From Ostreococcus lucimarinus (Eukaryota), in NCBI GenBank assembly GCA_000092065.1, contig CP000585.1: a stretch of 64,000 nucleotides of DNA; one strand, 5' to 3'. The position numbers were made by a program, and so were the translations under genes. Below, piece by piece: positions 15,609-53,489 of this stretch. The notes under the pieces were generated by a model, which saw nothing but the letters and a program-made list of their open reading frames with translations, ran no database searches and was not told where the DNA came from. Numbering within the stretch: the first letter of the stretch is position 1; every line of letters begins with the position of its first letter.

Positions 15609-16283
15609 CTACATCTCCAACAGTCCCCGCAACGCCTCCCTCGCATCGTCCTTTTCCGCATCCCGTTTCCTCTTCCTATCCTTCTTCTCTCGCTTCCTAT
15701 CCTTCGGCTTCGCCCTCGAGACCCCCCCGCCGGCGCCGAGCTTCTCCGCGCACCGCGCGCACGCGCGCACCTTCATCATCGCCTTCTTCCTCACCCCTCC
15801 CTCGTCGTACGCGAACACGCACTCGAACGACGCCAACCCATCGCTCGTCTCGCATCTCTTCTCGCCGCACGTGAACTGCCCCTTCCCCGCCCGCACCTCC
15901 GCCGCCGTTCGCCACCGCGCCCCCGTCTCGCCGTCTCGCGTCGTCGCGTCGAACACCGCGTACGCCTTGTACAGCTTTTCGTGATACCGTCTCGCCAGTC
16001 GCACCGCCCACGCGTCGCCGCGCCTTTCGTCCTCCTCGTCGTCTCTCACGAATCGGTGCTCGCGCGCCAGCGCGTCGCCGTCGCCGCGCGCGCGCCGCGC
16101 GTTCGCGCCGCAGAACCGCTCGTGCGCGTCGAGCAGCGCGGCGTGACGCGCGCGAGGGCTCAGCCGCGCGAAGTCGGCGCGATCGAGCGCGGCGCGCGCG
16201 ACGTCGTCGCCGCGCGCGCGCCGCATCGCGCGTCGCGGCGTGCGGGCGACCGACCGCGCGGGCGCCGTGCACGCATAAATCAT
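15609..16283 (-). CDS. FRA10AC1: FRA10AC1 homologue (fragile-site-associated nuclear protein family)
   Basis: KLYKAYAVFDATTRDGETGARWRTAAEVRAGKGQFTCGEKRCETSDGLASFECVFAYDEGGVRKKAMMKVRACARCAEKL matches the conserved FRA10AC1 core (EYAICDLS...RWRTEKEV..GKGQF.CGNKHC...L.SWEVNFGY.E...K..LVKLRLC..C..KL). A basic KDRKREKKDRKRKRD tail follows. The track start at 16283 lies inside the tandem duplication, so the true start may be the ATG at ~16226 (MRRARGDD...). Confidence 0.8.
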   Translation of the reverse strand: MIYACTAPARSVARTPRRAMRRARGDDVARAALDRADFARLSPRARHAALLDAHERFCGANARRARGDGDALAREHRFVRDDEEDERRGDAWAVRLARRYHEKLYKAYAVFDATTRDGETGARWRTAAEVRAGKGQFTCGEKRCETSDGLASFECVFAYDEGGVRKKAMMKVRACARCAEKLGAGGGVSRAKPKDRKREKKDRKRKRDAEKDDAREALRGLLEM

Positions 16284-16396
16284 CCATCACACATGGGCGA
16301 ACGGGTCGCAGAGTACGCGATCGAACGCGCGGGCGCCGTACACGCATAAATCATCACACATGGGCGAACGGGTCGCGGAGTACGCGATCGAACGCC
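16258..16396. repeat. tandem duplication, 2 x ~70 bp (GCGGGCGCCGTRCACGCATAAATCATC[CAT]CACACATGGGCGAACGGGTCGCRGAGTACGCGATCGAACGC)
   Basis: Copies at 16258..16328 and 16329..16396 differ by a 3-nt indel and 2 substitutions. The array sits between the divergent FRA10AC1 (minus) and SC5D (plus) genes. Each copy carries an ATG opening the same short reading frame (MIYACTAPARS). Confidence 0.9.
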
Positions 16397-16617
16397 CGCG
16401 GCGCGCGATAAAAATCGACCGCGCGACGTCACCCGTTTGACCGCGGCGCCGCACACGCCGGCGCGCCGCGCGACCGCGCGCGCACGAGCGCGCGGACGTC
16501 GAGCGCGACGTGAAGCGTCGCGTCGTCGCGGCGAGCGCGCGCGCGACGCGAGGAAGCGAACGCGACGCGACGCGAGGAAGCGAACGCGAAGACGCATTCG
16601 CGCGCGCGGCGCGCACG

Positions 16618-24709: not shown

Positions 24710-27316
24710 TTATTTCGCCGCCGTCCTCGCCGGACCGCTTGCGGGATTAAAGTTACGCTTGAGCGCGTCCCTGTTTCCGCCGAGGAACCGAATGAGGGAG
24801 AAAAGCTCGTCGCGCACGAGCCACGTTCGAACGGCACCACGATCGGCGACAAGACAGCCGATGTTGTGCGATGGGACTTCGAAGGGTGAGTCGAGACGAC
24901 TGAGCGTCGCGATGGTTCGCTCCTTGACAGGCGAGTGGCCGTACACGGTGCTGTGCTTGCCCCAACCAGTGACGACTTGAATCTCTTCAGGCAAGTCGCG
25001 AATGTCGATCGGCATTTCGGACTTATTCTTCAACCCTGATACGAGCGCACGCGTTCCTTTGCCCGCGGCTCGAACGTCGAGCGGTGCCAAAGCGCGTTGA
25101 CGCATTCGGCGCAACCACCAACGTAAGACGCACTGCGCGGTGCCGGCGGAACGAATACGGTGCAGGTCTAAAACACCGAGATCGTCCTCGCATTGGAAGT
25201 GCCCAGCCGCTTGAGCTTGTTCGAGCCACGTCGTTGCGCGATCCCATTGACCCATCTCCTCGCAAACATCGATGAGCGCGTCAAACGTGAGCGCGTTTGG
25301 CACGATCCCTTCACTCGTCATTTGCGTCATCGCCTCGCCCGCCTTTTGCCACTCTTTACGAGCCTCATACGAAATCAATAGCGAGTTGTACGTGTGCACG
25401 GTGCGCGTGACGTCGCTCGTCAGCATGTATTTGAATGTGTCCTCCACCTCGGCGTACTCGTTGTTAACGTGAAGCACTCGGAGCAGGGCGTCGGAAACGA
25501 ACCCTCGCCATCCTGGAACTTCTTCGAGCTCGCGATCGTCGGCGAGCGCGCGTATAAGAACCGGGAGGTTCCCGACTGGACTATCGCTCACGTCGCACGT
25601 GCGTTCGAATTCGGGCAAATCGATGCCCTCCAATTCGGCTCGCTTGATTTCCTCGCGAAGCCTTTCCTCGCGACACGCCTGAAGCTTTTCAATACCGCAC
25701 AAGCAATCGAGTGTGATGGTGTCCGGCGCGAATCCCGAAAGAAGAAGTTCTTTATATATTTTCGTCGCGCGCACCCAGTCACGCTCTGCGCTCGCCTCCA
25801 TCAGGAGCGTGTTGTACGTGACGAGAGTCGATCGCACGCCCTCCGTCTCCATCACTCGTAAAACCCGTTGCGTGCCTTCAAGATTACCCGCCTTGACACA
25901 CGCCCCGAGCGCGCTGTTGAATATCACGGCCGTCGCGTGCAAACGCGGGGCAATGATGACTTGATGCAGGAGCTCGAGAGCCCGATCGATGTTGCCGCTA
26001 TTGCCGTGCGCGGTGATTAACACGCTGTACGTGGTTTCGTTCGGCATGACCCCCGCGCGCTGCATGGATTGGCTCATATTTTCCATGTCACGAATGCGTC
26101 GCTGCCTTCCGAGCGATTGCAACATACCGTTGTATGTCGTCACGTTTCGCCTGACACCTTCCGTTTGCATGCGCTCAAACACGGCGGCGGCGTCCTTGTA
26201 ACGGCCCGAGTTCACCGCGGCAGAGAGCAATGCGTTGTACACACCCGTGTCCAATTGCACGTGCGAGCTCGCAAACAAGCTTTCGAATAACTCGCTCGCC
26301 TTTTCGAATTGTCCGCCCTTGCCGTACGCGCTGATGAGGGACGTGTACACGCGCACGCTCGGGTGCCACGTGGGCCCGCGACCTCTGAAGTCGCGCTTCA
26401 TCTCCTCAAACGTTTGTTCGGCGAGCTTCCACTCAATCGCACGCGCGTACGCCGCGATCACCTCGTGATACGTCTTGGCATCCGGACCCGGGCCGTGCTC
26501 TCGCATCTCGCGCAGCAATCTCGTCGCGTCCGCGCTCGCCGGCGGACGCGAGCGCTTGCACGCTCGCAGCGTCATGTTGTAAAACGCCAGCGGCACCGCC
26601 ACGCCGTTTCGCTCGCCCGCCTTCTTCATCCGCTGCAGCGCCGAAATCGCCTCAGGCGCGTCTCCGGTATCCGCCGCGCGCAGCATCACCGCCCCATCCA
26701 CCGCCCACATCGCGTCGTTCGCGTCCCACGCCGCGCTCGTCGACTTCTCGTCGTCGTCCGACCGCAGCGCTCGCTCGAGCGCGCCGTACGACGACGACAA
26801 CCCACCGTTTCGCCGCCCACTCCCGTTTCCACCCGTCGCGCGTCGCCACCCTCGTCGACCACCGTTCGCCGCGCCATCGAACCCGCTCCCGTCGCCCGCC
26901 GCGTCGAAATCCTCGTCGCCGCTTCGCCGCGTCGTCACCTCACCGCGCGGACCCTCGACGATTTCCAGCCCCTCCCGCGCCCAACCCCGTCGCGTCGCGA
27001 CTCCCGCGTACGCCCGCGTCCCGTTCGACGCCGCCGCGCTCGACCCGTCGTCGTCGTCGTCCTCGTCGCGCGTCGTCTCGTACGACGCGAGCGCGTCGCC
27101 CTCGTCGTCGTCGTCGCGACTCGTCGCTCTGCGGTTTTTACGGCTCGCGCGCGCCGTCACGCGCGCGCCGCGCGTCGCCATCGCCGCGCGCATCGCGCGT
27201 CGCTCGAGCGCGTCCGCGTCGCTCGCGCGTCGCGCCGTCGTCGTCGACGCGCGCGGTCGTCGTCGCGCGGTCGTGCTTCCCACCGGCGCCGTCGCGACGC
27301 CGCCGCGCGTCGCCAT
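24710..27316 (-). CDS. pentatricopeptide-repeat protein with C-terminal Smr domain (PPR-SMR family: GUN1/pTAC2/SVR7/SOT1-like), plastid presequence
   Basis: At least 12 tandem 35-aa PPR motifs (VYTSLISAYGKGGQFEKASELFESL; TYNGMLQSLGRQRRIRDMENMSQSMQRAGVMPNETTYSVLITAHGNSG; and others). The C-terminal Smr domain is LDLHRIRSAGTAQCVLRWWLRRM...VVTGWGKHS. The N-terminus is Ala/Arg-rich with acidic low-complexity stretches. Confidence 0.85.
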   Translation of the reverse strand: MATRGGVATAPVGSTTARRRPRASTTTARRASDADALERRAMRAAMATRGARVTARASRKNRRATSRDDDDEGDALASYETTRDEDDDDDGSSAAASNGTRAYAGVATRRGWAREGLEIVEGPRGEVTTRRSGDEDFDAAGDGSGFDGAANGGRRGWRRATGGNGSGRRNGGLSSSYGALERALRSDDDEKSTSAAWDANDAMWAVDGAVMLRAADTGDAPEAISALQRMKKAGERNGVAVPLAFYNMTLRACKRSRPPASADATRLLREMREHGPGPDAKTYHEVIAAYARAIEWKLAEQTFEEMKRDFRGRGPTWHPSVRVYTSLISAYGKGGQFEKASELFESLFASSHVQLDTGVYNALLSAAVNSGRYKDAAAVFERMQTEGVRRNVTTYNGMLQSLGRQRRIRDMENMSQSMQRAGVMPNETTYSVLITAHGNSGNIDRALELLHQVIIAPRLHATAVIFNSALGACVKAGNLEGTQRVLRVMETEGVRSTLVTYNTLLMEASAERDWVRATKIYKELLLSGFAPDTITLDCLCGIEKLQACREERLREEIKRAELEGIDLPEFERTCDVSDSPVGNLPVLIRALADDRELEEVPGWRGFVSDALLRVLHVNNEYAEVEDTFKYMLTSDVTRTVHTYNSLLISYEARKEWQKAGEAMTQMTSEGIVPNALTFDALIDVCEEMGQWDRATTWLEQAQAAGHFQCEDDLGVLDLHRIRSAGTAQCVLRWWLRRMRQRALAPLDVRAAGKGTRALVSGLKNKSEMPIDIRDLPEEIQVVTGWGKHSTVYGHSPVKERTIATLSRLDSPFEVPSHNIGCLVADRGAVRTWLVRDELFSLIRFLGGNRDALKRNFNPASGPARTAAK

Positions 27317-27491
27317 CGTCGCGTCGCCGCGCGTCGCGGTGCGTCGCGCGAGACTTCGTCGCGTCGCGCGCGCGTCGTCGCCGCGCTCGCGTCGCGTCGC
27401 GCGTCGCGCGCGCGCGTGTGACGCCGCGCCGTCGCCGCCGCCGGGCCGACCGCCTTATCTGCGACCGCGTGTGCGCAAACAGTGAGGACGT

Positions 27492-27648
27492 ACGTATACG
27501 TACCCCAGATGGGTAAAGTGCGCGCTGAATACGTATACGTACCCCAGATGGGTAAAGTGCGCGCTGAATACGTATACGTACCCCAGATGGGTAAAGTGCG
27601 CGCTGAATACGTATACGTACCCCAGATGGGTAAAGTGCGCGCTTGAAT
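27492..27648. repeat. tandem array, 4 x 39 bp (ACGTATACGTACCCCAGATGGGTAAAGTGCGCGCTGAAT), in a bidirectional promoter
   Basis: Four contiguous, essentially identical units (27492, 27531, 27570, 27609). The fourth has a 1-nt insertion. Each unit begins with the perfect 10-bp palindrome ACGTATACGT (ACGT core). It lies between the divergent starts of the PPR-SMR gene (27316, minus) and the lumenal-protein gene (27672, plus). Confidence 0.95.
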
Positions 27649-27671
27649 ACGAGCGGCGCACCGCGACGCGC

Positions 27672-44288: not shown

Positions 44289-45713
44289 TCATCGACGTCT
44301 GCCTCGGCGCAAACCGAGAAGAAGTTCACTAGCGTCAGAGAGCTCCGACATGCAGCTTTTCGACGCCACGAGCGAACCAGCGACAGATGGCGTGGCGCTA
44401 GCAAAACCATCGCGGTTGATTCCCGAGTGTTCTGTGCTCATGGGATTCATGTACGATCTCGCGGGGACGGTCTCCGACGCGCGCGGCTGCGGTCTCTTTG
44501 GCGATTCGTCCACTTGCGAACGTTGCAAACCGGCATTGTTCGCGCTTTTCGCTGCCGCGTTTACGACGCTTTCAAGCGCGTACGCGCCTCGAGACACATT
44601 GAGGAATCGTGCGTCTTGACTCAGACGACTGTACAGTGTGTTCGCCGGCGTCTTTCCGGCGAGCCTTACGAGCGAACGATCCTTGATCAAGCGCACCATT
44701 TCGCTCACTTGCAAACCTTCGGGGCCGGCGGTGAGTAAGAGGTGATAACACGCCTCGGAAATCGACTTGAACGGGCAATCCGTTTCGTCCGAGGTCACTA
44801 TGCCCTTGCCCGAGTCCCCGACGAAGGAGCCGCCTACGGTCATCGGCGGCTTACTCGTTGTATTCCCTGAATGATGTTCGCTCGTCGTCATCGTGCCGCC
44901 AAAGTTACTCGGCACTGCCTCGCGCTTGTAGCGCTTGGTGCTATCGCCGGCTTCACTGACGCTCATCATCGCCGCCAAGTGCTTGTACGCGGAATCTGGT
45001 CCGACAATACCACTTTCCTGCGGCGCGCCTCTCGGCGACCAACGCCCGTACGGTGACAACGTCCAACCTCTTCTAATCGACGCGTGCTTAGGCCGTGTCT
45101 TATTCCACGTCTCGCGAATCCACGATTGTCCGGTGGAGTCTTGGAACACTATCAAGGATGTATCGTTATTCACGCCAACGCCCGGAAAACAAACGACAAT
45201 TTTCCCGCGAGCGTCGGTGATTTGAGAAATATATCCTTCGCACCACCTGTTGTTGTAATGCACGTCGACCTCCTCGTTCAAGCGACGAGACGCGTCCACG
45301 GCTAGATTGTCAACTGGTGGTGTCGGGCGAACAGTACTCGACAGCGTGCTCGTGGGCAAACGAACGTTATCTGCGACACCATCGCCGCCGCCTTCCGGCG
45401 CGACGCCGAGCGTGATAAACTCCCCGTCGTTTTCGATAACCTTGGCGCTCGCCCAGGTCGCGCCGTGGGACTTGTGCGGACGCGCTACTTCTACCATTGA
45501 CCCTGGTTCGTACGCCAAGTTCACGTCAACGAGCTCCGAACCCGAACTCTTGTCACTTTCGCTCTCGCACCCGACGTAGTCCTCCGTCTCGCGACGACGC
45601 TTGCGACAAGCCGCCGCGCCCGCGAACTCAACCTCATCCGCACCCCGTCGCCCCGTCGACTCCCCGTCCAGATCGATCACTTTATACGTCGCGCGTTTGA
45701 CCAGCACAAACAT
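44289..45713 (-). CDS. chromatin-reader-like protein: tandem Agenet/Tudor-like barrels plus C-terminal HARE-HTH winged helix
   Basis: Two small beta-barrel modules (GSMVEVARPHKSHGATWASAKVIENDGEFITLGV; VDVHYNNRWCEGYISQITDARGKIVVCFPG) resemble Agenet/Tudor. The C-terminal CYHLLLTAGPEGLQVSEMVRLIKDRSLVRLAGKTPANTLYSRLSQDARFLNVSRGAYAL matches the HARE-HTH pattern (...TP..TL...LS.D.RF..V.RG.YAL). Confidence 0.65.
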   Translation of the reverse strand: MFVLVKRATYKVIDLDGESTGRRGADEVEFAGAAACRKRRRETEDYVGCESESDKSSGSELVDVNLAYEPGSMVEVARPHKSHGATWASAKVIENDGEFITLGVAPEGGGDGVADNVRLPTSTLSSTVRPTPPVDNLAVDASRRLNEEVDVHYNNRWCEGYISQITDARGKIVVCFPGVGVNNDTSLIVFQDSTGQSWIRETWNKTRPKHASIRRGWTLSPYGRWSPRGAPQESGIVGPDSAYKHLAAMMSVSEAGDSTKRYKREAVPSNFGGTMTTSEHHSGNTTSKPPMTVGGSFVGDSGKGIVTSDETDCPFKSISEACYHLLLTAGPEGLQVSEMVRLIKDRSLVRLAGKTPANTLYSRLSQDARFLNVSRGAYALESVVNAAAKSANNAGLQRSQVDESPKRPQPRASETVPARSYMNPMSTEHSGINRDGFASATPSVAGSLVASKSCMSELSDASELLLGLRRGRRR

Positions 45714-47456: not shown

Positions 47457-50012
47457 ATGGATGAACAGACGATGAAGAGGACGAAGAGCGCGAGAGGGGC
47501 GCCGCGAGGCGCGCGCGCGGCGGCGAAGCGCTCGGAAGACAGCGAAGAGGTCGAGGGCGGCGCGCTGAAGCGCATCGTCGCGGCTGGTACGGTTGCGTTT
47601 TCCGTGCTCGCGGGCGTGGAGGGGGCGATCGAGCCGGCGCGCGCGGCGGGCTCGGCGACGGAGATCGTGCAACTCGCGCTCGACGCCGTCGACCCCGTCG
47701 AGGACCCTGACGCCAAGGCTGAAGCGCCCGAGCGAGTCAAGGCGGATACTTCCTCGCTCGAGGGTGCGCTTAAGGCACAAGTGCAGTCGCGAAAGTCGAC
47801 GGTGAAGGAAGCGGGTAAGAAAGCGGCCAAGGCTGCCGCCGCGCCGGCGAAGAGCGGCGCGCCCGAAGGCGCCATGTCTCCGAACGCGAAGGATTACAAG
47901 TCTGAAATCGGCGAAAGCCTCGCTACTCTGGATTATGACGCCATTATCAAGAAGACGGACGACTATTTTGTCTACCGCTACGATCGCGGCATCGATGAAT
48001 CTCAAATCATCGATCTCGACGACGAAGACGACTCTGCGACGCGCGGTCCGAAGGGCACGAAGAAACGAGTCGCGGTGGCCAAGTCCACCACCGCCCCTTC
48101 GTTCACCTTGCCGAGCTTCACCGCGCCGAGCTTCGATGCGCCGAGCTTCTCGATTCCGACGTTTGAAGTGCCGAGCATCGAAATTCCGGCTATTCCGGGT
48201 GTAGCCGAACCGGCGACCAAGAAGGACACCTCCGCCGAAGACGCCGCGAAGGCTGACGCCGCGGCCGCGAAGAAGGCCGAGGCCGAGGCCGAGGCTGCGA
48301 GGAAGGCCGAGGCCGACGCCGCGACCGCCAAGAAGGCCGAGGCCGACGCCGCGGCCGCCAAGAAAGCTGACGCTGAAGCCGCCAAGAAAGCTGACGCCGA
48401 AGCCGCCAAGAAGGCCAAGGCTGACGCTGAAGCCGCCAAGAAGGCAGCGGCGGAAGCCGCCAAGGCTGAAGCTGCCGCGAAGAAGGCTGAAAGCGCGAAG
48501 AAGCCGATGGCTGCCGCCCCGGCCGCCGGTAGCAGCGATCTTGGTTTCGATTTCGGCTCTCTCTCTCAATACATGGAATCCGCTCCGGCGGCGCCGAAGG
48601 TTGACAAGAAGGCTGAAGCCGCCGCTAAGAAGGCTGCCAAAAAGGCCGCTGCTGAGGCCGCGAAGAAGGCTGCCGAGGAAGAAAAGAAGGCCGCCGCTGC
48701 CGCGAAGGCCGCTGCGAAGGCTGCTCCGAAGCCGATGGCTGCCGCCCCGGCCGCCGGTAGCAGCGATCTTGGTTTCGATTTCGGCTCTCTCTCTCAATAC
48801 ATGGAATCCGCTCCGGCGACGCCGAAGGCACCGAAGGCTGACAACGCGTCCGCCGCCGCTGGTCAAAAGGCTGCCGAAAAGATCGCCAAGCAACAGAAAG
48901 AAGCCGCCAAGAAGGCTGAGGCCGCCGCGAAGAAGGCTGAGGCCGCCGCGAAGAAGGCTCAAGCGCAAGAGGAAGCCGCCGCCGCGCGCGCCGCCGCCAA
49001 GGCTGAGATGGCCGCGAAGAAGGCGGCCGGGAAATCCGCTGAGAAACCGACTTACAGCAAGCGCACTGTTGAAAAGAAGGCGAAGCCGACGTTCACGAAG
49101 TCTGCCAGAGATGGTAAGTTCGCTCCCTTCGCTGGGACTTACAAGACGACCGTCGTCGAGAAGGAGGCCCTCCCGGGCGTGCCCGTCGACTTCGATGCCA
49201 TCGTCGACGCCCAAGAACCCAAGGCGGAAGCGATTCTCGCCAAGGCCAACGATAAATCTGGCGATTTCTTGAACATTTCCGGTGAAGCTGGCTTCGCCAT
49301 CGCGGGTACGATTGCGTTGGTTTACGAGACGGAGGACAAGAAGTTCCGCGAGCAAGCGAAGAATGCCAAGATGCCGGCGCCGACGAAGACGAATGCTCCC
49401 TCCGGTGAAAGCACCACCGAAGGTTGGTTCGATGCAGCGCTCAAGAAATACATGAACAAAGATGGTTCCGCCCCGAAGCCAAAGCCCGTCGCCGCCGCGC
49501 CGAAGCCGGTCGCCGCCGCGCCGAAGCCGGCCGTGCCGAAGTCTGATCCGGTGAAGAACGCCAAGGAGGCGCAATCGTGGATGGACAAGTGGTCCGCGAG
49601 CAAGCCTAAGCCGGCTGCCGCCGCGGCGCCGGCGCCGGCGCCTGCCGCGCCGAAGCCCGCGGCGCCGAAGTCTGATCCGGTGAAGAACGCCAAGGAGGCA
49701 CAGTCGTGGATGGACAACTGGGAGCGCAAGGTCAAGCCGACCGCCGCCGCCGCGCCGACGCCGGTCGCCGCGCCGGCGCCGACGCCGGTCGCCGCGCCGG
49801 CGCCGACGCCGGTCGCCGCGGCGCCGAAGCCCGTCCCGACGCCGACGGTCTCGACCACCACCACTCGCACGGTCACCTCGGACAACCTGACGGCCGAGCA
49901 ACGCGCCGCCGCCGAAGCCTGGCTCAAGAAGTGGCGCGAGGACGGTCGCCCGACGGACGAGACCAAATTCGACGAGGCCAAGACGTGGTTGAAGCAGCAC
50001 AACTTCGACTGA
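47457..50012 (+). CDS. Ala/Lys/Pro/Glu-rich internally repetitive protein of unknown function
   Basis: ATG at 47457. Long KKAAEAEAAKKA low-complexity tracts. Two 90-nt nucleotide-identical copies encode KPMAAAPAAGSSDLGFDFGSLSQYMESAPA (48501..48590 and 48729..48818). Two ~57-nt copies encode PKSDPVKNAKEAQSWMD (~49536 and ~49666). An (APTPVA)3 repeat follows, and the C-terminus is non-repetitive (AWLKKWREDGRPTDETKFDEAKTWLKQHNFD). Confidence 0.7.
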   Translation: MDEQTMKRTKSARGAPRGARAAAKRSEDSEEVEGGALKRIVAAGTVAFSVLAGVEGAIEPARAAGSATEIVQLALDAVDPVEDPDAKAEAPERVKADTSSLEGALKAQVQSRKSTVKEAGKKAAKAAAAPAKSGAPEGAMSPNAKDYKSEIGESLATLDYDAIIKKTDDYFVYRYDRGIDESQIIDLDDEDDSATRGPKGTKKRVAVAKSTTAPSFTLPSFTAPSFDAPSFSIPTFEVPSIEIPAIPGVAEPATKKDTSAEDAAKADAAAAKKAEAEAEAARKAEADAATAKKAEADAAAAKKADAEAAKKADAEAAKKAKADAEAAKKAAAEAAKAEAAAKKAESAKKPMAAAPAAGSSDLGFDFGSLSQYMESAPAAPKVDKKAEAAAKKAAKKAAAEAAKKAAEEEKKAAAAAKAAAKAAPKPMAAAPAAGSSDLGFDFGSLSQYMESAPATPKAPKADNASAAAGQKAAEKIAKQQKEAAKKAEAAAKKAEAAAKKAQAQEEAAAARAAAKAEMAAKKAAGKSAEKPTYSKRTVEKKAKPTFTKSARDGKFAPFAGTYKTTVVEKEALPGVPVDFDAIVDAQEPKAEAILAKANDKSGDFLNISGEAGFAIAGTIALVYETEDKKFREQAKNAKMPAPTKTNAPSGESTTEGWFDAALKKYMNKDGSAPKPKPVAAAPKPVAAAPKPAVPKSDPVKNAKEAQSWMDKWSASKPKPAAAAAPAPAPAAPKPAAPKSDPVKNAKEAQSWMDNWERKVKPTAAAAPTPVAAPAPTPVAAPAPTPVAAAPKPVPTPTVSTTTTRTVTSDNLTAEQRAAAEAWLKKWREDGRPTDETKFDEAKTWLKQHNFD
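48501..48818 (+). repeat. intragenic segmental repeat: two 90-nt identical copies (48501..48590; 48729..48818) separated by 138 nt
   Basis: Both copies read aagccgatggctgccgccccggccgccggtagcagcgatcttggtttcgatttcggctctctctctcaatacatggaatccgctccggcg. Identity extends to synonymous positions. Confidence 0.9.
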
Positions 50013-50128: not shown

Positions 50129-50617
50129 TCACGGCGACGTCCCCGGGGTCTCCTCTCCCCCCCCCTTTCGCGCCTCGCGCGCGACGTCGCAGCACCGCAC
50201 GTGCGGCAGATTCACCTTCCCGCACACCCCGCACCGCACCACGCTCTCCACGAACGGCAACCTCTTGAACTGATTCCTCCGTTTCCTTCGACTCGGCGTC
50301 ACCTTGCGCTTCGGCACCGCCATGAGCCACATCTCCATCACCCGCGATCCCAGTCCACCGTCCTCGAGCGTCGCGCCCGTCGCCGTCCGCGCCGTCGGCG
50401 CCATCGTCGCCGTCGCTCGCGCCTCGCGAATCGCGTCGTCGCGCGTCGCCATCGCGCGTTCGCGCGTCCGCGCGCCGTCGTCCCCGTCCGTCGCCGTCGT
50501 CGCGTCCGTCGTCGCCATCGCGCGCCGTCCCGCCGTCGCGCTCGCCGCCGCGCGCGCCGCCGTCGTCGCCGCCGTCGTCGCGCGCGTCGCGCGCGCGAGC
50601 GCGCGCGCGAGCGCCAT
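50129..50617 (-). CDS. organellar ribosomal protein bL32 with long N-terminal presequence
   Basis: The mature part MAVPKRKVTPSRRKRRNQFKRLPFVESVVRCGVCGKVNLPHVRCC matches bL32 (MAVPKKRTS.S...R.....C..CG....H..C). The start is assigned to MALARALARATRATTAA..., a presequence-like stretch. The start is uncertain because several in-frame Met lie upstream of the mature MAVPKRK. Confidence 0.75.
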   Translation of the reverse strand: MALARALARATRATTAATTAARAAASATAGRRAMATTDATTATDGDDGARTRERAMATRDDAIREARATATMAPTARTATGATLEDGGLGSRVMEMWLMAVPKRKVTPSRRKRRNQFKRLPFVESVVRCGVCGKVNLPHVRCCDVAREARKGGGEETPGTSP

Positions 50618-50862
50618 GCGCGCGTCGCGGTGTGCGTCTCGGTTTCCATCGTCGCACTGTTTGCCCATACGAAATCGCGCAACGTCGAGGTTTTATTATC
50701 CACCCGCGTCGATCGCGGCGCACACGACGACGCCGCGACCGCGCGCGCGACCGGCGCGTCGGCCGATGCCGCGCGTCGGCGCGACGCCGCGCGCGTCGCT
50801 CGCCGCGCGCGGCGTCGCGCGCGCGACGCGAGGGACGGCGCGATGCGCGCGACGCGCGACGA

Positions 50863-50894
<32 letters not shown>

Positions 50895-52412
50895 CGGATC
50901 GAGCGACGGCGCGACGCGCGCGGCGACGGCGCGATCGCGCGGGCGCGACGCGCGACGCGGTGCGACGCGCTGGGAGGGCTGGAGGCGATGGACGCGAACG
51001 CGATGGCGGCGCTGGCGCGCGACGCGCACGCGCACGCGAGCGCGGTTTTCGAGACGGCGGACGTCGGCGCGCTCGCGGACGCGGTGCGCGCGGTGAGCGA
51101 TGCGAACGGTGCGGTCGGCGATGGGGCGATGGCGGTGGACGCGGACGCGCTGAAAGAGGCGATGAGCGCGGTGACGGAGGCGGAGCGCGCGGCGAAAATC
51201 GCGAGCGGGGAAATCGCGGCGCCGCAGAGAATGGAGGGATGGCTCGCGCCCGTGTCCGACGCGCTCGAGGATCTGTTGTTTGCGATTCAGGGGCAGTTGC
51301 AAGGGCTGGGGGTGCCGTACTCGACCGGGAACGCGATCATCATCGTGACGATTTTGGTCAAGTTTGTGACGTATCCGCTCACGCGAGATCAAGTCGTGAG
51401 CTCGCTGAATATGAAAAACTTGCAGCCACAGATCGCGGCGATTCGTGAGAAGTACGAGGACGACCAGGAGCGCATGAATAAGGAGATCAATCGCGTGTAC
51501 GAGGAAAACGGGGTGAACCCGCTCGCGGGGTGCGGTCCGGCGTTGTTGACGTTTCCCGTGCTCGCCGGGTTGTATCGCGCGTTCAACAACGCCGGCATCG
51601 ACGGCGCGTTTGACGAGGCTTGGTTTTTCTTACCTTCCCTCGCAGGTCCCACGGACGCGCGAGATTTGAGTTGGCTGCTGCCGCTCGACTCGGATTACGC
51701 GCCGCCGATCGGTTGGGAGGAAGCGTCGCTGTATTTGATTTTCCCGGTGCTGACGACGATTTCGCAATTCGTGAGCATGGAAGTGTTGAAACCGGAGGAG
51801 ACTGAAAAGACGGATGAGATGAAGAATCAGTCGGTGTTGCTCAAGTTGCTTCCGCTGTTCATCGGCTACATCTCCCTCACCGTTCCCGCCGGGTTAGCTC
51901 TGTACTGGTTCTGGAACAACGTATTCACGACGGGGATTCAGGTGTTTTTGCGCAACGGCGGCGCGAAGGCGACGGTGGAGGCTCCGGACGACATTAAGAT
52001 TAAGATTCCTCTCGGATGCGTGGTGATTCCGGAAGACGCGGAGATCATACCGGCCGGCACCACAGACTTCGGACCGAGCATCGTCTGGGACGAGGAGTGG
52101 CTGGCGAAATGGCGAGAGGAGCAAGTCGCCGCCGCGCCACAGTTGGCGGCGCAAAACGCCATCGCCGCGGGCATGAGCGAAGAAGACGCCAAGACGATGG
52201 AGGAAGCCCTTCGTAACCGTCTTCCGCGCAAAAAGAACATAGAAGAGCGCAATTTAGCCACAGAAACCGAGTTAAAGTCCCTGATCAAGGAGTTCAAGGC
52301 GCAAGGCAAGGACGCCACCGTGCTCGAGGAGGGTCTCGTCGCGCTTCGAGCGTACAAGGCGGAACTCAAGGCGAAGAAAGAAGAGGCCCCATCCGAAGCC
52401 GCGACGCAATAA
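50616..52412 (+). CDS. ALB3: ALB3/OXA1/YidC-family membrane insertase (thylakoid ALBINO3-like) with C-terminal charged tail
   Basis: Core GNAIIIVTILVKFVTYPLTRDQVVSSLNMKNLQPQIAAIREKYEDDQERMNKEINRVYEENGVNPLAGCGPALLTFPVLAGLYRAFNN...FFLPSLAGPT...LPLFIGYISLTVPAGLALYWFWNNVFTTGIQVFL is canonical 60-kDa inner-membrane-protein/Alb3. Start assigned to the first ATG after the Arg-rich artefact (MRASRCASRFPSS...). The conserved core begins ~300 aa later, so an internal start or an intron is possible. Confidence 0.8.
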
Positions 52413-52478: not shown

Positions 52479-53489
52479 TCACGCCGCTCCCGCCCCGCCG
52501 TACGCCCCTTTCACGAAGATGTACGCCTTGAAATTTTGTCCACCAGTCGTGCGCATCGTGAACGAGTGCACGTGCTCGACGTTTCGCAAACCTAATCGTC
52601 GCCACAACTCCACGCGCTGGTACGTCACGAGCACCTGGAAGTTCGAGCGGTTGAGCTGCTTGGCCAAGAGCGCGAGCGTCTTTTCGTTGAAGACGCGATC
52701 GTACATGTAAATGTGCGAAAACTTGAACGCTCCGCGAGTCGTCGCGTCGCCTTGCTCCAACTCGCACCTCGGCGGAGACACGAGTTCGCGTCCCTCGTCC
52801 GTCATGAACGCTCGATCGCCGTTCAAAAGTTCAGCTTGGACTTCAGAAGCCTTTTGCGCTCGCGAAGGAACGTATTCGATCCCCACCGACTTTGCCACCT
52901 TGGCCGAAAGCGCGGCGTGAAACACCACCTTCCCGTATCCGCTCCCGACATCGATGAACGTGCTGTCCTCGCACAGGTTGAGATCGGCCCACATCTCCGA
53001 CATCGACTTCCCCTTCACGGGCGTTCGCACGGGCAACGGCGCGTCCAAGTCGGCGCTCGACAAACCTCGCAACAGCTGCAGCAACCGCTCGATCGACCCC
53101 TCCGTCATCTCTCCGTACCCCTCGCTCGCCGCGTTCTCATCTTCACCCTCCTCCGTCGCGGTCTTCGCCTTCTTCGCTCGCCGAGCGTCGTCTCCGTCCG
53201 CCTCCTCGCGCTCCCGCTTCGCCGCGTCGTCGTCGTCGCCGCCGATCGACCGACGCTTCCTCGGTCCCTCCACCGACCAATCGCTCGTCAGTCCCCAATC
53301 CAAGTACGTCTTCTTATCGATGTATCGATACACTCCCTTGACCGCCGCGTCGACGCGCACGGGCGCGCCCTTCGTCGGCGTCACCGGCGCGTCGTCGCCG
53401 CCGCGTCCGCGATCGGTCTCGAGGTCGTCGCGCGACGACGGCGCGCGCTTCGCGGGCGTCGACGGCGGCGACGCGGCGAACGAGAACAT
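52479..53489 (-). CDS. DOT1-like class-I SAM-dependent (histone-lysine) methyltransferase
   Basis: ATG at 53489. Motif I STFIDVGSGYGKVVFHAA, post-I VGIEYV and motif-II-like FKFSHIYMYDRVFNE have the spacing of the DOT1 catalytic domain (FVDLGSGVGQVV...GVE...FVNNFAFGPE). The N-terminus is basic/acidic low-complexity with KRR and KKAK nuclear-localisation-like runs. Confidence 0.6.
   Translation of the reverse strand: MFSFAASPPSTPAKRAPSSRDDLETDRGRGGDDAPVTPTKGAPVRVDAAVKGVYRYIDKKTYLDWGLTSDWSVEGPRKRRSIGGDDDDAAKREREEADGDDARRAKKAKTATEEGEDENAASEGYGEMTEGSIERLLQLLRGLSSADLDAPLPVRTPVKGKSMSEMWADLNLCEDSTFIDVGSGYGKVVFHAALSAKVAKSVGIEYVPSRAQKASEVQAELLNGDRAFMTDEGRELVSPPRCELEQGDATTRGAFKFSHIYMYDRVFNEKTLALLAKQLNRSNFQVLVTYQRVELWRRLGLRNVEHVHSFTMRTTGGQNFKAYIFVKGAYGGAGAA

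Follow-up and report, generated by a model that had tools for sequence, protein, structure and literature searches.

The attachment of ferredoxin-NADP+ reductase (FNR) to the thylakoid membrane governs the share of photosynthetic electrons that goes to NADPH production and the share that goes to cyclic flow. In plants it relies on Tic62, TROL (thylakoid rhodanese-like protein) and LIR1, and in cyanobacteria on a domain of FNR itself. Here we describe a gene of the picoalga Ostreococcus lucimarinus, located at 47457..50012 (+) of a 64,000-nucleotide stretch of contig CP000585.1 (assembly GCA_000092065.1), hereafter the window, and consider the possibility that its repeat-rich product is a further tether of this kind.

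Among the plant systems, Tic62 carries its FNR-binding module as three to four repeats in a Pro-rich tail, a feature confined to vascular plants (PMC1847441), and is reported to be attached to the membrane without spanning it. In TROL, a stromal FNR-binding motif follows a Pro-rich swivel, and another domain of the protein lies in the lumen (PMC7108012). In earlier work no orthologues of Tic62, TROL or LIR1 had been identified in Chlamydomonas, and O. lucimarinus has an FNR (PMC5683061). Its accession is XP_001422240.1, and that of the O. tauri FNR is XP_003084170.1. The green-algal mechanism was described as enigmatic before a 2026 report that the N-terminal helix of mature Chlamydomonas reinhardtii Lhca4 tethers FNR to the photosystem I–light-harvesting complex I (PSI-LHCI) supercomplex; the Lhca4 N-terminal peptide SAVPENVKEAREWIDAWKSKSGG binds FNR 1:1 with a Kd of ~126 nM, and a charge swap of E5, E9, E12 and D15 together weakens this binding (bioRxiv 10.64898/2026.04.07.716946). 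The preprint, dated April 2026, surveyed Lhca homologues only and found the helix in Chlamydomonas, Monoraphidium and Raphidocelis (bioRxiv 10.64898/2026.04.07.716946).

The explanation that we favour for the O. lucimarinus locus joins a real orphan gene, repeats that evolve in concert and an FNR-tether function, and taken as a whole we place it only a little short of evenly balanced between right and wrong.

The gene and its Trp units

The open reading frame (ORF) is intact and encodes 851 amino acids, or 846 from the alternative start at Met6 (47472) that many gene calls choose, and it is a real, conserved gene of O. lucimarinus. The neighbouring ORF products are identical to XP_001417943.1 (DOT1-domain) and XP_001417930.1 (Tudor-domain) of O. 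lucimarinus CCE9901. Synteny is kept in at least six related lineages represented by marine and estuarine metagenome contigs (designated L001 and so on), the gene order Tsr1 / HARE-HTH / gene / L32 / ALB3 / DOT1 / ADH being retained in L001, L004 and L006 and, in part, in L011. Purifying selection acts on the gene, with a synonymous divergence (dS) of 0.16 and a non-synonymous to synonymous ratio (dN/dS) of 0.22 against the sister lineage L020. The first-pass annotation of this DNA, made from the letters alone, had dismissed a 993-codon ORF on the opposite strand as a false call generated by composition, and the comparison bears it out: the sense frame is open in all orthologues, whereas the codon-aligned antisense frame is fully open in the window only and broken in every orthologue. 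The sense frame alone is conserved; the gene is a real one, and the ORF on the other strand arises as a by-product of composition.

In composition the protein has 230 Ala, 115 Lys, 69 Pro and 67 Glu among the 851 residues (27% Ala, 13.5% Lys, 8% Pro, 8% Glu), and 138 basic against 119 acidic residues in total; the third-position GC content is 77% over the whole gene. The features referred to below, including two copies of an FDFG-containing motif unit and two of a Trp unit, are as follows.

47457..50012 (+): complete single-exon gene, 851 aa, on the evidence of the ORF, syntenic orthologues and dN/dS
47457..47531 (+): N-terminal basic, acid-free stretch rich in Arg, Ala, Ser and Thr, aa 1-25
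47574..47648 (+): hydrophobic segment IVAAGTVAFSVLAGVEGAI followed by EPARA/AG, aa 40-64
47886..48011 (+): conserved acidic/aromatic block DYKSE..LDYDAI..DDYFVYRYDRGIDES with invariant columns, aa 144-185
48093..48197 (+): five-residue xPSFx repeats (APSFTLPSFTAPSFDAPSFSIPTFEVPSIEIP), conserved in orthologues, aa 213-247
48234..48494 (+): Ala/Lys/Glu/Asp helix 1, aa 260-346, predicted by AlphaFold2 as a helix over the same residues
48500..48600 (+): core of motif unit 1 (KPMAAAPAAGSSDLGFDFGSLSQYMESAPAAPK), dN = 0 against the sister lineage, AlphaFold2 coil
48606..48719 (+): Ala/Lys/Glu helix 2 (AlphaFold2), aa 384-421, a spacer between the motif units that is not homogenised
48728..48828 (+): core of motif unit 2, 91 nt identical to unit 1 (101 nt if a single mismatch is allowed)
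48849..49037 (+): Ala/Lys/Glu helix 3, aa 465-527, from AlphaFold2 and composition
48903-48959: 21-nt tandem unit, 2.7 copies, 97% identity
49260..49331 (+): second hydrophobic helix GDFLNISGEAGFAIAGTIALVYETE, putative transmembrane, aa 602-625
49404..49430 (+): invariant block GESTTEGWF, from conservation
49478-49530: 21-nt tandem unit, 2.5 copies, 93% identity
49490..49592 (+): Trp unit 1 (PKSDPVKNAKEAQSWMDKWSAS), putative FNR-binding helix of the Lhca4 type, aa 698-714
49619..49721 (+): Trp unit 2 (PKSDPVKNAKEAQSWMDNWERKV), helix aa 741-759, 87% nucleotide identity to unit 1
49742..49844 (+): Pro/Thr/Val/Ala spacer repeats (PTPVAAPA x3) of a length that varies among contigs; the same interval is a 24-nt tandem unit, 4.4 copies, 86% identity
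49878..50009 (+): conserved C-terminal module SDNLTAEQRAAAEAWLKKWREDGRPTDETKFDEAKTWLKQHNFD with two variant Trp helices
47061..50042 (-): spurious 993-aa antisense ORF, a product of composition and no part of the gene

The link to Lhca4 comes from the Trp units. This Trp-containing repeat of the C-terminal tail, the most informative part of the protein, had escaped the first pass. A profile of the whole C-terminal region gave a weak match in the PDB to Chlamydomonas Lhca4, and a profile built from 13 Trp units and searched against 177,635 distinct PDB sequences placed the three deposited forms of Chlamydomonas Lhca4 in the top three positions (E 0.013-0.016), the next sequence having an E-value of 1.1. 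The alignment sets NAkeAQsWIDkWkkk against NVKEAREWIDAWKSK of Lhca4. As controls, profiles built from the FDFG unit or from the C-terminal module were run against the PDB and returned nothing better than E 0.2-0.4, and a 51-residue Lhca4 segment used as a query yielded no candidates. The two Trp-unit peptides of the window, PKSDPVKNAKEAQSWMDKWSASKP and PKSDPVKNAKEAQSWMDNWERKVKP, belong to a consensus N-A-K-E-A-Q-x-W-I/M-D-x-W, whose invariant residues N, A, A, Q, W and W correspond to N, V, A, R, W and W in Lhca4, and one helical face (N, A, W, I/M, W) is conserved between the two. The unit of the low-GC, Bathycoccus-like relative reads ...KWIDAWKK and shares the hexapeptide WIDAWK with Lhca4. 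Each of the eight Trp residues in the window protein sits in a conserved motif, and the AlphaFold2 helices at 698-714 and 741-759 lie between coil, with a pLDDT (predicted local distance difference test) value of just 50-66.

The Trp unit may be a module common to several proteins, as its sequence recurs elsewhere. A different protein of similar layout, encoded at L056:3991-6252 (+) and also on L054 and L055, comes from estuarine metagenomes of the same kind. Its N-terminus is of the basic-acidic-hydrophobic-AxA sort and is followed by DYLNS, by an AKAE helix and by a hydrophobic one; about 8-10 KKSLFSFGAKK repeats with APEPEPEP spacers come next, reminiscent of FSFG repeats of the Nsp1 type, and two Trp units, EAQQWIDAWRAS and EAQEWIDKWVES, form its end. 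Its likeness to the window protein is confined to the Trp units (pairwise E 2e-6), and it has no match in Pfam.

The protein as a whole was modelled with AlphaFold2, run with a 15-sequence alignment, which gave a mean pLDDT of 42 and no tertiary fold; the secondary structure is clear and agrees with conservation and hydropathy. Three long helices of about 50% Ala, with charge balanced or mildly positive and with 0, 0 and 2 large hydrophobic residues, respectively, make up the AK-rich tracts, and the first of them (54% A, 22% K+R, 22% D+E, no residue of the set LIVMFWY) contains tandem 24/30-nt units. Between the long helices the motif units are predicted as coil, so that the earlier description of the motifs as globular-looking is not supported, and in these models the repeat and C-terminal motifs would rather be short linear motifs. 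Short helices are also predicted at 144-167, within the acidic/aromatic block, and the xPSFx repeats are registered by Tandem Repeats Finder (TRF) as a period of 15 at 48102-48149.

At the N-terminus, aa 1-25 resemble in composition the N-terminus of the neighbouring ALB3, and are followed by an acidic cluster (aa 26-39), a succession of basic stretch and acidic cluster that recurs in all lineages; we regard aa 1-25 as a segment probably of the organelle transit-peptide type. The most hydrophobic stretch of the protein comes next (aa 40-58, hydropathy 1.85, AlphaFold2 helix 35-49), in a layout again common to all lineages, with an EPAxAA or AxA-type site conserved in most lineages, and aa 40-64 may be either a signal of the thylakoid-transfer type with an AxA site or a first membrane anchor. 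The second hydrophobic helix is strongly conserved, has a borderline hydropathy of 1.49 and is predicted by AlphaFold2 at 609-636.

Concerted evolution of the motif units

The two copies of the motif unit are identical over 91 nt, 48500-48590 being equal to 48728-48818 (unit GSSDLGFDFGSLSQYMESAP), and the match grows to 101 nt with one mismatch (Ala to Thr) at a spacing of 228 nt, or 76 aa. Both copies encode PMAAAPAAGSSDLGFDFGSLSQYMESAPA, within a strict consensus of D-L-G-F-D-F-G-x-L-S-Q-Y-M-E-S-x-P, and dN is 0 in both against L020. For a gene of 2.5 kb, two identical stretches of this length lie far outside what chance would give. The earlier observation that copies of about 90 nt agree even at synonymous sites is therefore reproduced at 91 nt, as is that of a further near-identical pair, namely the two Trp units, 49490-49592 and 49619-49721, with 87% identity at a period of 129 nt. 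The core at 48500-48600 is rich in codons ending in T or A (GGT, GAT, CTT, TCT, CAA, GAA), set against the 77% third-position GC of the gene overall.

As to the origin of this identity, the first pass had offered very recent duplication or gene conversion. Every lineage has at least two motif units and some have three, and the copies have diverged from one another in L009 and in the low-GC L011, which argues that two units are the ancestral state. In three lineages the copies match each other at a nucleotide identity of 0.9-1.0 over a core about 100-180 nt long and at only 0.2-0.5 in the Ala/Lys/Glu flanks, a pattern that a fresh duplication of the whole 228-nt unit does not fit. For conserved residues the synonymous codons differ between lineages and agree between the copies of one lineage; most clearly, in L020 the changes GCC>GCT, GGT>GGC and TTC>TTT are found in both copies, and in neither copy of the window. 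The simplest account is concerted evolution, in which gene conversion homogenises only the ~100-nt cores of an old duplicated unit: of the two explanations offered, conversion is upheld by the shared synonymous changes, and recent duplication fits less well with the presence of two units throughout and with the restriction of the identity to the core.

The number of units also varies. Contigs of the O. lucimarinus lineage show numerous in-frame changes in length by which whole units are lost or gained, with differences of 76 aa (motif unit), 43 or 65 aa (Trp unit), and also 7, 8, 16 and 18 aa, so that single contigs carry 1-3 motif units and 1-3 Trp units. In the one-copy allele, the flank to the left of unit 1 is joined to that on the right of unit 2, a junction expected from unequal recombination and likewise from short-read collapse of a 91-nt exact repeat, and one-copy and two-copy contigs share flanking haplotypes. 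We consider unequal recombination or slippage the likely cause of the differences in unit number. Variation in copy number, which had been anticipated, is thus present among related contigs, though for the 228-nt unit assembly collapse could also produce it.

Conversely, the first pass had noted that the identical copies might be an assembly duplication. Such a reading, or one in which the ORF is non-coding and purely compositional, could point to the one-copy versions on many metagenome contigs with the same flanking haplotypes as the two-copy form. The exact two-copy 846-aa protein, however, recurs on at least 10 metagenome contigs that different projects and assemblers produced independently, which shows that the duplication is not an artefact of this one assembly, and the presence of two or three units in every lineage, the purifying selection and the conservation of the sense frame alone leave the artefact reading hardly credible.

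A candidate FNR tether and its rivals

From the sequence and by analogy with plant TROL and Tic62, we tentatively propose, at a strength clearly below even, that the protein is a membrane-anchored, multivalent FNR tether of the chloroplast thylakoid. The bipartite basic-acidic-hydrophobic-AxA N-terminus would send the protein into the thylakoid system, acting as a signal or as an anchor, and the second hydrophobic helix would span the membrane, leaving the Pro/Ala-rich C-terminal tail facing the stroma. There each Trp helix would dock one FNR, like the matching N-terminal helix of Lhca4, with the Pro/Ala spacers serving as flexible swivels, as has been proposed for the PEPE region of plant TROL. 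The central part would lie in the lumen, where the charged Ala/Lys/Glu helices would be rigid spacers and the FDFG...SQYMES units could bind a second partner across the membrane. A more elaborate version, which we hold to be clearly less likely than not, is a dedicated membrane-spanning tether of Ostreococcus and its relatives that holds 2-4 FNR on flexible stromal arms and is coupled through a long, helical, lumenal FDFG...SQYMES domain to a second partner, its valency tuned by unequal recombination and its copies kept identical by conversion; the Lhca4-type helix would then have its first carrier outside the antenna proteins, and TROL and Tic62 of plants a counterpart that arose by convergence.

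Considering how the protein relates to described systems, it lies outside the light-harvesting complex (LHC), TROL, Tic62, histone H1, nucleoporin, TolA and EPYC1 families, the defining domain or motif of each having been searched for and not found; under the proposed model it would represent a new protein family that serves to tether FNR to the membrane. With Lhca4 it shares a 15-residue core, N-[VA]-K-E-A-[RQ]-x-W-[IM]-D-x-W-K/S, predicted in both proteins as an alpha-helix with flexible flanks, and both belong to the green algal lineage. Here, however, the helix is found in the C-terminal tail (units at aa 690-760) of an orphan, putatively membrane-anchored protein and not in an LHC antenna, it occurs as 2-3 tandem copies plus variants on Pro/Ala spacers, and the chlorophyll a/b-binding domain is absent from the protein by Pfam. 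Under the same model the architecture recalls TROL, viz. a membrane anchor, a non-stromal central part, a Pro-rich region and a stromal C-terminal FNR-docking motif, but there is no sequence homology, the rhodanese domain is absent by Pfam, the central region consists instead of charged helices and FDFG units, and regular-expression searches for the FNR motif of Tic62 and TROL (KPPSSP; S-P-Y-x2-Y-x-D/E-L-K-P-P) gave no match. Tic62 likewise has repeated motifs in a Pro-rich, non-globular C-terminal region and is limited to one lineage; its motif is of a different type, and its NAD(P)-binding short-chain dehydrogenase module is absent here by Pfam.

Other resemblances concern the layout. TolA domain II and charged single helices of the ER/K type resemble that of the window protein, as an analogy only: in TolA, as is predicted here, a hydrophobic N-terminal anchor precedes very long Ala/Lys/Glu/Asp helices that lack a hydrophobic core, and the C-terminal domain III of TolA has no Pfam or PDB match in the window protein. 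Proteins of the EPYC1 type share short conserved helices at regular spacing in disordered sequence and a variable number of repeats, but the window protein lacks the Rubisco-binding motif and is predicted to be membrane-anchored. A PEX5-like WxxxF reading was also considered, and was rejected or at most kept as an analogy.

Several points weigh against the FNR-tether proposal. The Lhca4 match spans 15 residues at an E-value of ~0.01 and came from one among several PDB profile searches; of the four acidic residues swapped in the Lhca4 peptide, E9 and D15 are conserved, and in the Trp units V/K stands in place of E5 and S/Q/G/A in place of E12. Short as well as borderline, the second hydrophobic segment has flanking charges so nearly neutral that they hardly discriminate between the two sides of the membrane. 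The exact protein is not in the reference annotation, and the proposal leaves the FDFG...SQYMES units, the best-conserved part of the protein, unexplained. The motif itself has been described in Lhca proteins of Chlorophyceae only, in a source that is a preprint (bioRxiv 10.64898/2026.04.07.716946).

The main rival shares the membrane anchor and the multivalency, taking the protein as a scaffold or spacer with partners other than FNR and the Lhca4 likeness as coincidental or as that of a generic amphipathic Trp helix. The alternation of short conserved motifs with spacers would suit it, as would the shortness and borderline score of the match, the want of any known counterpart for the FDFG units, and the two similar Trp units that follow the FSFG repeats of the otherwise unrelated L056 protein; against coincidence, the sole PDB sequences below E 0.1 with the Trp-unit profile belong to a proven FNR-binding helix of another green alga, and the control profiles were empty. 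We hold this scaffold to be a realistic possibility, if one that falls well short of even. A protein with a signal anchor in the secretory pathway, at the cell surface (as the first pass had suggested) or in the nuclear envelope, whose FDFG and PSF motifs would resemble the FxFG repeats of nucleoporins, is in our view improbable. The hydrophobic N-terminal segment with its AxA site would be compatible with it, FDFG fits the FxFG pattern, and the L056 protein has eight FxFG motifs of the form KKSLFSFGAKK; yet the hydrophobic segment comes after some 35-45 conserved residues, an arrangement atypical of an endoplasmic reticulum signal peptide, the window protein and its orthologues have just two FxFG motifs each, conservation reaches far past the FG residues, and no Pfam nucleoporin match is found even in L056.

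Two further readings, which take up suggestions of the first pass, fare worse still, and to each we assign a very slight probability. A linker protein for the pyrenoid or for Rubisco, or some other stromal protein that phase-separates in the manner of EPYC1, would account for the sticker-and-spacer layout with short helices about 43 aa apart, but the hydrophobic anchor segments speak against it, and the Rubisco-binding motif [DN]W[RK]xx[LIVA] was matched by none of seven proteins (the window protein and six orthologues) in a regular-expression search. Moreover, no family match was found in the pyrenoid-bearing relatives Micromonas and Mantoniella, although divergence limits such negatives, and the family is known only from Ostreococcus-like and Bathycoccus-like genomes; Ostreococcus and Bathycoccus are not known to have pyrenoids. 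A histone-H1-like or nucleoid DNA-binding protein would share the richness in Ala, Lys and Pro, whereas the AK tracts here are predicted to be helical and are close to charge-neutral (22% K+R against 22% D+E in the longest), and Pfam detects neither a linker-histone domain (Linker_histone) nor any other DNA-binding domain.

Distribution, annotation and wider meaning

The family appears to be an orphan one of Ostreococcus-like picoalgae with a single low-GC, Bathycoccus-like relative, in keeping with the earlier description of a novel low-complexity protein, which the Pfam, PDB and HMMER searches, empty beyond the family itself, support. A Pfam scan of the window protein, 15 family members and 3 further orthologues or relatives gave nothing above threshold, only the low-complexity Borrelia_P83 and sub-threshold noise, and no structural relative turned up when the whole protein was searched against PDB sequences. 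HMMER searches with a C-terminal 320-residue profile against 1.84 billion representative proteins returned just four clusters of the family itself and three fragments, and a full-length word-indexed search returned unnamed metagenome proteins only; with a motif-unit profile there was no match in a 5.8-billion-protein set, where low-complexity flanks swamped the candidates. Literal searches of the literature for the FDFG, ESTTEGWF and C-terminal strings likewise gave no match, and WIDAW alone led to a paper, that on Lhca4.

The low-GC relative L011 (48% GC, Bathycoccus-like) carries the gene beside L32 and ALB3. This orthologue, at L011:6071-8528 on a contig of long reads polished with pilon, is broken up among three reading frames, the splits being either introns or residual frameshift errors, and the spacer between its motif units is (ETPKPVVV)n in place of the Ala/Lys/Glu helices. 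In L001 and L009 (L001:5880-6000 and L009:2800-3000) the conserved basic N-terminal coding sequence runs upstream past the called ATG to an in-frame stop, without a further ATG, and the sequence immediately upstream of this extension ends in 'ag'. The extension suggests a short first exon and a 5' intron in these lineages; the window gene has no intron.

The gene is probably unannotated, or differently modelled, in the O. lucimarinus reference. Its exact 851-aa product is absent from a collection of 15 billion proteins, and the 846-aa Met6 product is present on metagenome contigs only. Between 47457 and 52412 the window holds three conserved genes, namely this ORF, a chloroplast-type L32 (50129..50668, -) and ALB3 (~50990 to 52412, +), and only one GenBank protein accession number falls there, between XP_001417941 (HARE-HTH, 44289..45713) and XP_001417943 (DOT1, 52479..53489), so that the reference annotation probably misses two genes. 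The exact L32 product is matched in metagenome records only.

Other repeats occur elsewhere in the window. An intergenic 39-nt tandem unit (TACGTATACGTACCCCAGATGGGTAAAGTGCGCGCTGAA) is present in 4.1 copies with 99% identity at 27491-27651, adjoined by a GC-rich 134-nt repeat of 1.9 copies at 27151-27403, and a 67-nt tandem repeat of 2.3 copies with 89% identity lies at 16246-16404. In the 5' part of the ALB3 region, a 66-nt repeat of 2.1 copies is found at 50444-50581 and 50787-50860, and metagenome contigs that are nearly identical elsewhere differ there in length by 6-67 nt.

Whatever the function of the protein at 47457..50012, its gene provides a clean, small-scale example of the concerted evolution of functional short motifs. 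If the FNR-tether proposal is true, the Lhca4-type helix would be a portable docking module, and one of the most abundant marine picoalgae would offer a directly testable candidate tether for the prasinophyte lineage, in which O. tauri can be manipulated genetically. Through the Lhca4-type helix repeat, the unexpected result of this analysis, an ORF that was anonymous and of low complexity becomes a concrete, testable candidate for the recruitment of FNR in prasinophytes.

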